32,000 nucleotides of DNA from Candidatus Saccharimonadota bacterium (GCA_016699205.1 CP064964.1:480001-512000); one strand, 5' to 3'. Numbered from the stretch's first letter, positions 10,759 to 29,027 are shown. Notes: generated by a model not told the origin, from the letters alone. Made by a program: numbers and translations.

Positions 10759-10787
10759 TAATTACGATAAAATAATGGTTTTGTCAA
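10759..10787 (-). promoter_or_regulatory. Sigma70-like promoter, TTGACAAAA -35 box, for gene 9159..10628
   Basis: Minus strand reads TTGACA (10787-10782), a 17-nt AT-rich spacer, then TAATTA. It sits in a short AT-rich patch inside GC-rich DNA, ~125 nt upstream of the ATG. Confidence 0.5.
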
Positions 10788-10816
10788 CCCCACCGCAGAG
10801 CTTAGCGAAAACGAAA

Positions 10817-10846
10817 GCGCCCACCCCAGTAAGTCAGGGTGGGCGC
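10817..10846 (-). terminator. GC-rich terminator hairpin of the 190-aa lipoprotein gene (same module as 9113..9142)
   Basis: GCGCCCACCC/GGGTGGGCGC forms a 10-bp stem, flanked by CTGATC on the 5' side and TTTCGTTTTCG on the 3' side of the minus strand. Confidence 0.7.
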
Positions 10847-10875
10847 GATCAGAGATGCCCTTGCGGGCGAAGGAG

Positions 10876-11448
10876 CTAGAGGAGCGAGGAGCAGAGCGGC
10901 AGACGCAGGACGTACCCGCCACCAGGCGAGACGGCCGTCGTCACGATGCTCGAGACGTCCTCGGGGGCGCCGGTCGCGTCGGGGTCGTACCAGACCTCGA
11001 TGCGGACGTTGCGCGACATGGCGGTCGAACCCGCCGGGATGGCCGCGTAGTCGCCGGAGGAGCAGCGGAACCCGAGATCGACCTCGGCGCCGACCCACTC
11101 GGGACGGACGCGCTGGTCGATGTCCGAGCCCGGCGTGTAGACCGTGCCGGTGACCGGCAGGCTGTACGCCGTCGGATCCCAGCCGCTGGCGCAGGAGCCG
11201 AGCGGGCCGTTGGCGGCGTCGAGCACCGTCACGCGGAAGCGCGTCGGGCTCATGCCGTCGGCGCCGCAGTGGCGCCAGGGGGTCGGAGGCGACGTGGTCG
11301 TGGCCGCGTCGGCGAGGACCGTCGGGCCGCTGTCACCCACGGGGGTGACGCCGGCATCCGTGCCGTACGTGGGGCCGTCGGGGCTGGTGTTGCAGCCGGA
11401 GACGAGCGCGACGAGGACGAACGAGACGATGGTGAGGGTGTTCTTCAT
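10876..11448 (-). CDS. Small lipoprotein of unknown function (island)
   Basis: The start was moved to ATG 11448, giving MKNTLTIVSFVLVALVSGC with a lipobox (LVSGC). 190 aa, GC3-rich, with a Thr/Pro-rich linker followed by a probable beta-rich domain. Confidence 0.65.
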   Translation of the reverse strand: MKNTLTIVSFVLVALVSGCNTSPDGPTYGTDAGVTPVGDSGPTVLADAATTTSPPTPWRHCGADGMSPTRFRVTVLDAANGPLGSCASGWDPTAYSLPVTGTVYTPGSDIDQRVRPEWVGAEVDLGFRCSSGDYAAIPAGSTAMSRNVRIEVWYDPDATGAPEDVSSIVTTAVSPGGGYVLRLPLCSSLL

Positions 11449-11640
11449 GATCTTCTGGATCCCTTCTTCATGCCCGATGCGTCGGAGCCGCGTTGATTGT
11501 TTTCGGTTTTGAACTGGAACGTTTGGTTTGAACAAATCTCGCGATTTGTACTCCCCTCGAAGGCCATCAGGTTGATGATGAACTTTGAGGGAAGGAGCAC
11601 CGGTAGAAACCAGTGCTCACTTTCCAGAGTGTGCTTGCCC

Positions 11641-12852
11641 TCAGAGCGGGCAGGCGAAGGTGCTGCATTCGTCGAGCGGGACGTGCGGCTTGGAGAAGCT
11701 CGATGAGGAGCCCTCGCGGCAGACGTAGCCCGCATCGGAGAGGTCGCGACCGTCGATGTCGACGATGAAACCTGCCGAACGCAGCGTGTTGCCGACGCGC
11801 GGGTTCCAGTCGGTGACCGTGCCGGCCCAGTAGCCGATCTCCGATCCACGCGACGCGTCATCCGGGCAGAAGGCCTGGAGACGAACCCATCCGCGCCAGC
11901 TTCCGCTCATGACGATCGAGTAGCTCGTGGCACCGGCGATGGAGCGAAGCTCCGTTCCACCAGGACCCCAGGCCACCGTCACGAGACCGCGAGCACAGGT
12001 CGCGCGGAGCGCGGCCGTGGGCTGCACGCGGAGCGTGCCGCCGAGGTTGTCCTCGCAGACCGCACAGACACCACCTTCGTCGGTGAAGCCGTTGCAGTTG
12101 TTGTCGCGGCCGTCGCAGATCTCGACACCACCGTTGGTGATCGTGCAGGTCGGGCCGCAGGCGAGGTCACTGCCGTTGCAGTCCTCGTCGATGCCGTTGC
12201 CGCAGATCTCGGTCGCGCTCGGGCAACGCCCGGCGTTGGTGTCGTCGCAGTCGTCGCCGACCGTACGACCCGGCGGGGTGCGCGGGCAGTGAACCGAGCC
12301 GCTCGGACCCATCGACATGCCACCGTCACAGTGGTCGTCGTTGTCGTCGTCGCAGCCTTCGTCGATCTGTCCGTCGCAGTCGTTGTCGAGGTTGTCGCAG
12401 ATCTCCACGCCGGTGGGCGTGCAGGTGGAGCAACCGTCGTCGACCGAGCCGTCGCAGTCGTTGTCGATCGCGTCGCCGCAGATCTCGGACACCGGCGAAC
12501 CGGGGACCGCACTGCAGATGGACGCGGTCGACGAACCTGCGGGGCAGGACGTCGTGCCGAAGCGCTGGCAGGCGCCGAGACCGAGCGAGCAGCTCGCACC
12601 ACCGCCCGGGCAGTCCGGGGTGGTGTCGCAGACGCTGCCGTTCAGCCGGCAATCCCAGGCGCGGCCATCCGCGGCGCAGAAGAGCGCCGTCTGGTTGCTG
12701 TCGCAACCGGGGATGTCGCAGCCTTCGGAGCCCGGCATGATCGAGCCCGGCTCGCAATTGCGACCGTGCTCGTCCGGCGGGACGTAGTTGGCACAGGCGG
12801 CGAGGCCCATGCAGATCGTGATGGAAAGGAACGAACCGTTGATCTTCATCAT
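11641..12852 (-). CDS. Lipoprotein with DNDCDG-type Cys-rich putative metal/Ca-binding repeats (MopE-motif-like)
   Basis: The start was moved to ATGATG 12852, giving MMKINGSFLSITICMGLAAC with a lipobox. Four repeats are present: EICGDAIDNDCDGSVDDGC, EICDNLDNDCDGQIDEGC, EICGNGIDEDCNGSD and EICDGRDNNCNGFTDEG. A non-repetitive C-terminal domain of ~130 aa follows. Confidence 0.7.
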   Translation of the reverse strand: MMKINGSFLSITICMGLAACANYVPPDEHGRNCEPGSIMPGSEGCDIPGCDSNQTALFCAADGRAWDCRLNGSVCDTTPDCPGGGASCSLGLGACQRFGTTSCPAGSSTASICSAVPGSPVSEICGDAIDNDCDGSVDDGCSTCTPTGVEICDNLDNDCDGQIDEGCDDDNDDHCDGGMSMGPSGSVHCPRTPPGRTVGDDCDDTNAGRCPSATEICGNGIDEDCNGSDLACGPTCTITNGGVEICDGRDNNCNGFTDEGGVCAVCEDNLGGTLRVQPTAALRATCARGLVTVAWGPGGTELRSIAGATSYSIVMSGSWRGWVRLQAFCPDDASRGSEIGYWAGTVTDWNPRVGNTLRSAGFIVDIDGRDLSDAGYVCREGSSSSFSKPHVPLDECSTFACPL

Positions 12853-28639: not shown

Positions 28640-28670
28640 ACTGGCCAAAGAATAGCATAAAAACGACGAG

Positions 28671-28698
28671 CCCCGGACCAACCTATGTTGGACCGGGG
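28671..28698 (-). terminator. Terminator hairpin of the 89-aa satellite ORF
   Basis: CCCCGGTCCAAC-ATAG-GTTGGTCCGGGG forms a 12-bp stem with one mismatch, followed by CTCGTCGTTTTTA on the minus strand. Confidence 0.6.
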
Positions 28699-28722
28699 CG
28701 TAGAGACGGAAAGCGCGAGCGC

Positions 28723-28992
28723 TCAGAGTATGGAAGCGATGTCCCCCACGGAGGGCGTGGGAGTCTGCTTCATGGTGGGCATGACAGCGATGGCGGCGAT
28801 GGCGGCGGCCTCGGGTAGCGTCTTCAGGTCGTGAGCGCTCTCGAGACGGATGAAGTCGGAACCTCGGTAGCCGAGGTGGTCGTTCATCTTGTTCTGCAGA
28901 GATGCGAGCTGCGTCTCCGGAAGGGTAAGCCCCCTCGGAAGATCCATGAAGAGCCTGTATGCCTGTTCGCCGTACGACATCGTGTCACCCAT
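28723..28992 (-). CDS. Small GC3-rich orphan protein (satellite cassette)
   Basis: 89-aa ORF (MGDTMSYGEQAYRLF...AAAIAAIAVMPTMKQ...). Its codon third positions are visibly G/C-rich compared with its neighbours. It has its own TTGACAAAA box and terminator, and coding status is plausible but unproven. Confidence 0.45.
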   Translation of the reverse strand: MGDTMSYGEQAYRLFMDLPRGLTLPETQLASLQNKMNDHLGYRGSDFIRLESAHDLKTLPEAAAIAAIAVMPTMKQTPTPSVGDIASIL

Positions 28993-28998
28993 ATCCGC

Positions 28999-29027
28999 AC
29001 CTCATCACAATAATAATGTTTTGTCAA
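28999..29027 (-). promoter_or_regulatory. TTGACAAAA -35 box with a weak -10 (TGaTGAGGT), upstream of the 89-aa ORF
   Basis: TTGACA is at 29027-29022, with TG at spacer positions 15-16 as in the other copies. The -10 is poor. The geometry would place the TSS at or near the ATG (28992), giving a leaderless mRNA. Confidence 0.4.

Follow-up and report, generated by a model that had tools for sequence, protein, structure and literature searches.

We analysed a stretch of 32,000 nucleotides (nt) assigned to a Candidatus Saccharimonadota bacterium (GCA_016699205.1, CP064964.1:480001-512000; hereafter the window, with positions counted from its first letter), in which the 9-mer TTGACAAAA recurs upstream of G+C-rich open reading frames (ORFs) on the minus strand. 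The closest named relatives of this DNA are metagenome-assembled genomes of Candidatus Uhrbacteria, and the replicon is a small chromosome of the candidate phyla radiation (CPR)/Patescibacteria (genome of ~1 Mb), not a phage or plasmid. A metagenomic contig of 1.11 Mb contains the same DNA. The window also carries genes for transfer-messenger RNA (tmRNA), tRNA-Thr and tRNA-Tyr, together with holB, frr, glyS, tpiA, infC-rpmI-rplT and thrS. Loci from related genomes are given by our own labels (L002 and so on).

Five exact minus-strand copies of TTGACAAAA had been claimed for the window, and all five are present, at 10779-10787, 14718-14726, 14842-14850, 15552-15560 and 29019-29027. Every copy is intergenic and lies in an AT-rich patch. 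The G+C-rich ORFs downstream start at 10628, 14505, 15505 and 28992, as originally predicted; however, the copies ending at 14850 and 14726 belong to tandem promoters of one operon, and there are therefore four units rather than five. Each unit consists of a predicted promoter, a Shine-Dalgarno (SD) sequence, one or more ORFs and a terminator, all on the minus strand.

The first unit is led by a promoter at 15532-15560, in which a 17-nt spacer with TG near its end connects TTGACAAAA (15552-15560) to TATATT (15532-15537), with 11 of 12 consensus positions matched; this promoter is kept upstream of the orthologues in L011, L080 and L019. It precedes p186 (14945-15505), a 186-amino-acid (aa), cytoplasmic orphan with the SD AGGAG and a G+C content at third codon positions (GC3) of 0.82, and the unit closes with an intrinsic terminator at 14888-14933 (17-bp stem, then a U-run; -31.9 kcal/mol, z -5.9). 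The second unit, the operon of the main island beside holB, has two promoters, each with TTGACAAAA, a 17-nt spacer and TG. P1 (14822-14850) has TATATT and matches the consensus at 11 of 12 positions, while P2 (14698-14726) has TATTGT, then CGTTC, and matches at 10 of 12. P1 resembles P2 in sequence and is kept in L011, L019 and L080, and P2 is conserved in synteny across many Uhrbacteria. A structured 5' leader of ~190 nt (14506-14692) separates P2 from p486 (13045-14505; GC3 0.79), the product of which is secreted and has a signal peptide. Next in the operon, p440 (11641-12852; 403 aa from the ATG at 12852; GC3 0.83), encodes a lipoprotein-like, Cys-rich protein with four MopE-type putative metal-binding motifs (PF11617, E = 2.6e-19), and the third gene, p190 (10876-11448; GC3 0.89), encodes a lipoprotein of ~190 aa (MKNTLTIVSFVLVALVSGC...) with orthologues in L018 and L019. 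Hairpins occur at the junctions within the operon, including the one upstream of p440, without a promoter and without a U-run; the intrinsic terminator of the whole operon lies at 10808-10846 (-34.9 kcal/mol, z -4.7).

The promoter of the third unit (10759-10787) reads GGGTTGACAAAA, a 17-nt spacer and TAATTA without TG, with AAGCCGTT at the start region; it is kept in L011, L019 and L018, and its variant in L080 is TTGACAAAG. It is followed by p489 (9159-10628; secreted; GC3 0.74; SD AAGGAGG), whose C-terminal domain is the sole part that can be traced in deeper relatives, and by an intrinsic terminator at 9104-9142 (-33.1 kcal/mol, z -5.2). The fourth unit is a distant satellite. Its promoter (28999-29027) combines TTGACAAAA, which starts 2 nt past the stop codon of the upstream backbone gene, with a 17-nt spacer, TG and a weak -10 box, TGAGGT, and is kept in the sister species L077 and L078. 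Its gene, p89 (28723-28992; GC3 0.79), is an orphan of 85-89 aa between two backbone genes, and its terminator hairpin lies at 28658-28699 (-27.8 kcal/mol, z -3.5), with the U-run 7 nt past the stem. Every unit ends in a strong terminator hairpin (from -28 to -35 kcal/mol, with z from -3.5 to -5.9) and a U-tract, and the ORFs downstream of TTGACAAAA have GC3 values of 0.74-0.89 against 0.51-0.69 for the backbone of the window. Signal peptides or lipoboxes were found in p486, p440, p190 and p489. When the island genes are pooled, Cys makes up 3.7% of their residues, as against 0.3% in the backbone.

The five copies compare with an expectation of 0.25 for the whole window in dinucleotide-preserving shuffles, none of 100 of which reached five. 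When the 3.1 kb of intergenic DNA was shuffled within segments the expectation fell to 0.02; the AT-richness of the patches therefore does not account for the count. The window holds eight TTGACA hexamers, five of which have the AAA extension that makes them TTGACAAAA. A search allowing one mismatch added just two sites where 6.9 were expected in total, which argues that the exact form is preferred. A literature search for the 9-mer returned mostly primers, and no paper on promoters of Patescibacteria or on SD use in Uhrbacteria was found.

Promoter type

Exact TTGACA and a spacer of 17 nt can be read directly from the sequence at all five sites. The original prediction described a -35 box, a 17-nt spacer and an extended -10 box. 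This description holds for TG at spacer positions 15-16, which four of the five sites have, but not for all of the -10 boxes: three have the good TAnnnT form (TATATT at 15560 and 14850, TATTGT at 14726), and the other two (TGAGGT at 29027, TAATTA at 10787) are poor. The three sites with good boxes match the sigma-70/sigA consensus at 10-11 of 12 positions, have TG as well, and outrank all other promoter-like sites of the window. Beyond the island, the frequency of such matches does not exceed that in shuffles. By its sequence, TTGACAAAA is a TTGACA -35 hexamer plus AAA, with which an AT-rich spacer opens. We profiled 19 sites in a variety of gene contexts and obtained the class consensus TTGACAAAAa....AttTT.TG.TAt.tT, then GTTC at about +1, with T at -15 in 14 and G at -14 in 15 of the 19. 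Every conserved position in this profile maps to an element of sigma-70/sigA promoters, namely the -35 box, the TRTG/-16 region, the -10 box and the YRY start; a T-rich '-16/TRTG' region is typical of Gram-positive promoters. CGTTC, conserved at the expected start position, is the sole sequence feature that supports initiation there.

The same TTGACA, with the same spacing, is found in the tRNA promoters of the lineage and in the tmRNA promoter of the window. Here the spacers are GC-rich and lack TG, and AAA is rare (one of about nine). Since stable-RNA promoters use TTGACA, the hexamer is best read as the housekeeping -35 box and the 9-mer form as a sub-type, so that the housekeeping polymerase plausibly reads the TTGACAAAA promoters. 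The tmRNA site, TTGACA-N18-TATCCT at 19144-19173 on the minus strand, precedes the tmRNA gene (18602-19024) by ~120 nt, lies at the 3' end of smpB and has neither AAA nor TG. It is the only other TTGACA in the window with promoter geometry and the only backbone site with a perfect -35 box. Apart from this site, the proposal that extended -10 elements are all that backbone genes show is largely right, and the proposal that the G+C-rich ORFs share a promoter type that the window's backbone protein genes lack stands as made.

A different sigma factor or a dedicated binding protein had also been suggested. Neither is supported by the sequence: the sites match the sigma-70/sigA consensus with its TG extension, the -35 hexamer is that of the lineage's tRNA and tmRNA promoters, and the AAA is not invariant among orthologues, being GAA in P2 of L011, GGT in L020, L021 and L024, and AAG in the p489 promoter of L080 (TTGACAAAG), with TAAAA in front of p185 in L077. 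Nor does the spacer contain a significant dyad (mean best inverted-repeat arm 4.0; shuffled spacers 3.65 +/- 0.93). To account for TTGACAAAA, no alternative sigma factor or binding protein appears to be needed.

Promoter modules of different cassettes are alike beyond their functional positions. The promoters of p198 (an ORF in L011) and p489 align over 40 nt (z 8.3), GGGTTGACAAAA recurs, GGG recurs before the motif in several cassettes, and the ribosome-binding site and first codons of p149 (an ORF in L080; ATGGAAAATCG...) can be aligned with those of p186. Because the modules are related in sequence, shared descent explains much of their exact conservation. These similarities suggest that new cassettes may reuse existing promoter and 5' modules.

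Gene class: composition, location and leader

We determined whether a 9-mer within 350 nt upstream is associated with high GC3 (delta-GC3 >= 0.12) among 517 greedily called ORFs from 34 loci of the clade. The enrichment that had been anticipated was found (odds ratio 15, p = 1.3e-7), and it persisted without the close relatives of the window (odds ratio 12, p = 2e-4). At least 13 independent gene contexts are represented, all with downstream ORFs at a delta-GC3 of +0.09 to +0.40; among the 9-mer sites listed there is one clear non-coding exception, a tRNA-Thr promoter. The pairing of this promoter with G+C-rich ORFs thus extends to sister strains and to distant Uhrbacteria.

The two groups of genes also differ in translation initiation signals. 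Backbone genes of the window essentially have no SD sequence (median anti-SD duplex ~-2 kcal/mol), and this includes rplT, infC, frr and glyS, whereas the SD sequences of the G+C-rich genes have strengths of -7 to -13 kcal/mol. Across the lineage (L018-L050 and the window), the median is -1.9 for 160 backbone starts placed by means of conserved N-termini and -6.4 for 59 high-GC3 ORFs with signal peptides (p = 3e-9). Backbone genes of GC-rich relatives still lack SD sequences, and the split is independent of genomic GC. The G+C-rich class therefore differs from the backbone in four signals: promoter, SD sequence, terminator and codon composition.

The compositional difference affects both purines and pyrimidines. 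At two-fold sites C/(C+T) and G/(G+A) are both 0.83 in the island, against ~0.5 in the backbone, and Lys falls to 0.9% in the island, with a shift from Lys to Arg. Translation genes raise just C, at four-fold sites. We rejected translational selection alone as the cause of the high GC3, since G-ending purine codons and the Lys-to-Arg shift are not seen in translation genes. As a cause of the G+C-richness, GC-biased gene conversion at a recombination hot spot would be compatible with the mosaicism described below.

The slot upstream of holB contains three to four signal-peptide or lipoprotein genes with a GC3 of 0.75-0.96 in at least 11 Uhrbacteria relatives, in which the backbone GC3 is ~0.5-0.6. 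For example, island genes have values of 0.96 and 0.89 in L020 (against ~0.5) and 0.77-0.84 in L023 (against 0.38-0.53), and an excess is seen in every relative examined, even in those that are themselves GC-rich. The island proteins evolve fast, with an identity to L019 of 48-68% where the backbone proteins reach 87-94%. Between strains, the N-terminal half of p486 (13800-14400) is hypervariable, at 44-55% identity, while the flanks (promoter, leader and backbone) of the same strains are 97-100% identical, and the upstream edge of the variable zone coincides with the conserved promoter and leader. The segment 11000-13600 is also variable between strains, more weakly than 13800-14400. The mosaic blocks differ from strain to strain, a sign of allelic recombination. 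The recent foreign origin that had been implied for the main island does not fit these data: the island is syntenic across the lineage, and no G+C-rich gene has relatives outside the clade.

Searches with the sequences of p486, p489 and p440 against PDB yielded nothing meaningful; p486 has a weak Pfam match to the OMP_b-brl beta-barrel family (E = 0.003), and its single-sequence structure model (predicted local distance difference test, pLDDT, 35) was too poor for use. The C-terminal region of p486 (13045-14100) is beta-rich and ends in ...GVSF, Phe-terminal like outer-membrane barrels, which is odd for a CPR bacterium presumed to be without an outer membrane. The C-terminus of p489 (9159-9700) is beta-rich too and weakly similar to that of p486 (E = 0.037). 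In L009/L010, public gene calls at 2293-3957 and 3978-5390, corresponding to about 11640-14500 of the window, are of 554 aa and 470 aa on the opposite strand; the promoter strand there carries proper orthologues of 505 aa and 441 aa with signal peptides. We considered an inversion or an alternative cassette and rejected both, the opposite-strand calls being antisense artefacts in GC-rich sequence.

Small orphan ORFs make up the rest of the class. Both p186 and p89 have four related clusters among 5.8 billion proteins, p489 has just 15 representatives among 1.84 billion, and p185, an ORF of L077, has two related clusters. An exact-protein look-up of p186 gave no match, a scan of reference genomes for it gave no relative, and scans of viral contigs with two cassette proteins likewise gave none. 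No G+C-rich ORF matched NCBIfam, PHROGs or PADLOC, and Pfam matches among these ORFs were limited to the MopE motifs of p440, the weak barrel match of p486 and a GRDP-like match in p185 of L077. A structure prediction for p186 from a five-sequence alignment (pLDDT 50) was too poor for a fold search. Both p186 and p89 are real genes, as substitutions between orthologues concentrate at third codon positions (4/6/21 by codon position for p89, the pattern of a coding gene). The G+C-rich proteins are mutually unrelated, contrary to the idea of a dispersed family, and we rejected the small ORFs as a single protein family because they have no pairwise similarity.

Several of these ORFs vary in presence. 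L080 has a 149-aa ORF (p149) between a BNR gene and frr, and L077 has a 185-aa ORF (p185) between a 437-aa gene and thrS; both sites are empty in the window. L011 has a 198-aa ORF (p198) where L010 carries a different gene. No empty site was sampled for p89. The L080 insert (18372-18960, compared with window 7022-7095) begins 3 nt before TTGACAAAA and ends past its own terminator, and these borders show that promoter, ORF and terminator form one indel unit. The suggestion that the promoter is carried along with the cassettes is thereby shown directly for one small cassette, in a sister genome, and agrees with the relatedness of the promoter/5' modules by descent. The same insert adds a TTGACG-N18-AATATT site in front of frr. 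In L002, at 2133-3902 (~7 kb past the right end of the window), there is a group of small orphan genes (109, 61, 152 and 109 aa; GC3 0.83 in one of them). It opens with a TTGACAAAA promoter directly downstream of tRNA-Pro(tgg) and may represent either a hot spot for cassettes or an integrated element of small size.

The leader downstream of P2 (14506-14692, minus strand) is predicted to be highly structured (minimum free energy -81 kcal/mol, z -5.1). Its core hairpin, at 14625-14654, reads GAGCCGUUCCGUC-UCCU-GGCGGGACGGCUC. We found the leader in the window and in L022, L023, L025-L028, L032, L037, L047, L049, L094, L098 and L139; an orthologous promoter and the conserved leader precede the first island gene in most relatives. 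In the alignment 95% of cells are paired, and covariation exceeds that of all 500 shuffles. At the base, the stem AGCCGUUCC/GGGACGGCU hardly changes between loci. The apical hairpin is of differing length and displays in its loop CCUCC or UUCCUCCUUUC, the same sequence as the 16S rRNA anti-SD tail; in the predicted fold, the p486 SD can be paired with another CCUCC stretch. A metagenome scan with the invariant hairpin core gave genuine matches in L094, L098 and L139, the rest being chance matches in high-GC genomes, as expected for a GC-rich search pattern. In Rfam, no family reached the gathering threshold for the leader, and a permissive threshold gave sub-threshold noise. The leader is a candidate for a new cis-regulatory RNA.

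Explanations of the association

We consider it probable that TTGACAAAA is the -35 element of a near-optimal housekeeping promoter that fronts self-contained units of G+C-rich, lineage-restricted and fast-evolving genes. The promoter would be of full sigma-70/sigA strength, with a 17-nt spacer, a T-rich/TG extended -10 region, TAnnnT and a CGTTC start region, and the units would be laid out as promoter, sometimes a structured leader, strong SD, one or more ORFs and a strong terminator. The class would have two parts: a syntenic, strain-mosaic locus for surface and secreted proteins by holB, built like an S-layer gene, and small orphan genes that would be gained and lost between backbone genes as promoter-ORF-terminator blocks, in the manner of the phage cassettes known as morons. 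Backbone protein genes would lie in operons with weak, -10-only promoters and no SD, so that the 9-mer would appear to 'mark' the G+C-rich ORFs. As a promoter the motif is of an ordinary, consensus kind; its unusual property is that it divides a ~1-Mb CPR genome into two expression classes, one of them G+C-rich, SD-using and present throughout the lineage.

Several observations weigh against this explanation. Of the two poor -10 boxes, TGAGGT (29027) lacks the key A at position 2, and TAATTA (10787) lacks both the final T and TG. The sigma-70 consensus alone leaves the extra conservation of AAA and of the AT-rich spacer unexplained, and high expression does not account for the codon pattern of the island. 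The lack of SD sequences in rplT and infC also counts against it. In addition, the loci behind the lineage-wide statistics were anchored beside the island, so that many copies are orthologous, and ~50 kb of the 1.1-Mb genome was examined. Finally, it is from sequence that we infer initiation at these sites by RNA polymerase with the primary sigma factor, and high expression.

Three other explanations of the motif have to be set beside this one. That the repeat arose by chance or from the composition of AT-rich intergenic DNA, and has no shared function, might be argued from the fact that AT-rich patches, where A-rich words are likelier, hold all copies. It is effectively refuted, and in our estimate has next to no probability, given the excess over shuffles within intergenic segments, the fixed distance and geometry to the -10 box, and the retention of sites at orthologous positions in species whose proteins are just 50-70% identical. 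A true regulon, in which a dedicated sigma paralogue or DNA-binding protein would recognise TTGACAAAA with the AT-rich spacer and GTTC and co-regulate the G+C-rich genes, has more to recommend it: the exact 9-mer is far commoner than its one-mismatch variants, the tRNA and tmRNA promoters of the lineage have TTGACA with a different kind of spacer, GTTC is conserved near +1, GGG recurs before the motif, and the genes have further expression signals in common (SD sequences and terminators). However, all conserved positions map onto known sigma-70/sigA elements, AAA is not constant among orthologous promoters, the spacer has no significant dyad symmetry, the relatedness of the modules explains exact conservation by descent, and no regulator gene was identified in the ~50 kb examined, p186 having no detectable fold or family. 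We regard a regulon as very unlikely.

Alternatively, the G+C-rich units could be foreign. Donors of high GC content, or a co-evolving pool of mobile Uhrbacteria genes (phage or plasmid), would have supplied them once or repeatedly, complete with canonical promoters, SD sequences and terminators. Atypical composition and codon usage, including the Lys-to-Arg shift, fit such an origin, as do SD sequences in an otherwise SD-less genome, the presence or absence of whole promoter-ORF-terminator blocks between sister genomes, the position of the L002 cluster directly past tRNA-Pro, and agreement with the definition of a moron in all but phage context (PMC2920897). Judged as a horizontally transferred island, the main island is atypical in composition but is neither absent nor patchy among relatives, the small cassettes being patchy; there are no homologues in a donor lineage, and no mobility gene or tRNA attachment site at a border within the window. 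Relatives were found only within a narrow Uhrbacteria clade in the sets of 5.8 billion and 1.84 billion proteins, the reference genomes and the viral contigs; PHROG and PADLOC gave no match, and there is no integrase, transposase or phage gene nearby. The main island is syntenic, and a GC3 excess even in GC-rich relatives is the opposite of amelioration after one old transfer. On balance we think a foreign origin rather unlikely.

A broader and more speculative reading, which we hold only tentatively and think unlikely as a whole, is that Uhrbacteria have a second 'expression compartment': a lineage-wide gene class, made up of a hypervariable surface-protein locus and mobile orphan cassettes, with its own signals, an actively maintained GC offset and gating by SD/anti-SD pairing. 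The offset might be kept by GC-biased gene conversion at hot spots or by exchange with an unsampled GC-rich mobile pool, and the availability of SD/anti-SD pairing might gate how the class is translated, a control in which the leader's 16S-tail-mimic loop (UUCCUCCUUUC) would take part.

CPR/Patescibacteria are mostly uncultured episymbionts whose host-interaction genes are largely 'hypotheticals'. If the signature of a TTGACAAAA-type promoter, SD, terminator and high GC3 does pick out a class, it offers a handle for finding surface and accessory genes, and the genes so found would be the likeliest mediators of host attachment, phage resistance and strain competition. The public calls on the wrong strand at the island locus are a hazard for annotation. 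Our analysis also raises the questions of how a GC3 excess of +0.2 to +0.4 persists in one syntenic locus over deep divergence and why SD initiation is confined to G+C-rich genes. Genetic tools yet to be built for these organisms could, moreover, draw on the TTGACAAAA-type promoter as a candidate strong promoter.

Comparison with known systems

Morons, a concept of Hendrix and Juhala, are defined, as quoted in PMC2920897, as having their own transcription signals, a different GC content and variable presence between conserved neighbours. The small cassettes resemble them in consisting of one gene or a pair that is flanked by conserved genes, is equipped with its own promoter and terminator, and is present in some related genomes but not in others (p149 of L080, p185 of L077, p198 of L011), and in having a GC3 of 0.72-0.89 next to neighbours at ~0.6. 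Unlike phage morons, they lie in a cellular chromosome with the housekeeping neighbours holB, frr and thrS (also a GGDEF gene and tmRNA), and have no phage genes, PHROG match or viral-contig relatives. Their GC deviation is upward and uniform, and the cassettes encode orphans; for morons, homologues elsewhere are the rule.

Minimal mobile elements of Neisseria are strain-variable genes that are swapped between conserved flanks by homologous recombination, without mobility genes. The cassettes are like these in that alternative or absent cassettes occupy the same site, there is no integrase or transposase, and identity is mosaic in blocks. They differ in that there are no uptake sequences and no evidence of transformation, and in that the cassettes share composition and a promoter/SD/terminator architecture.

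S-layer genes, such as slpA of Lactobacillus and others, have two promoters, a long structured 5' untranslated region, efficient promoters and codon bias (PMC3666127). The p486 locus is built in a similar way, with tandem P1/P2, a structured leader of ~190 nt, codon bias, a signal peptide and a strong terminator, and it too is variable between strains. However, the island proteins have no similarity to known S-layer proteins in Pfam, NCBIfam or PDB, and no SLH or anchoring domain was detected. Moreover, the island consists of a three-gene operon and a fourth gene, its codon bias is a general G+C shift rather than the translational optimum of the host, and the anti-SD-like loop of its leader is not described for slpA.

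The promoters themselves have close counterparts among Gram-positive bacteria. The strong constitutive promoter Pveg of B. subtilis reads TTGACAAAA...TGnTACAAT. An engineered consensus PsrfA promoter reads TTGACAAAAACATTTTTTTCATGTATAAT (PMC4845504). As in sigma-70/sigA promoters of this kind, the window sites combine TTGACA, a 17-nt spacer, a T-rich run, TG (in four of the five) before TAnnnT (in three of the five), and an A-run past the -35 box; they are intergenic, lie just upstream of genes and are kept at orthologous positions. Within the same lineage they are set apart from the stable-RNA promoters, which have GC-rich spacers and no TG, and from the backbone protein genes, which mostly have no -35 box. 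Unlike sigma-70/sigA promoters generally, the form seen here is, as far as sequence can tell, reserved for one compositional class of genes.

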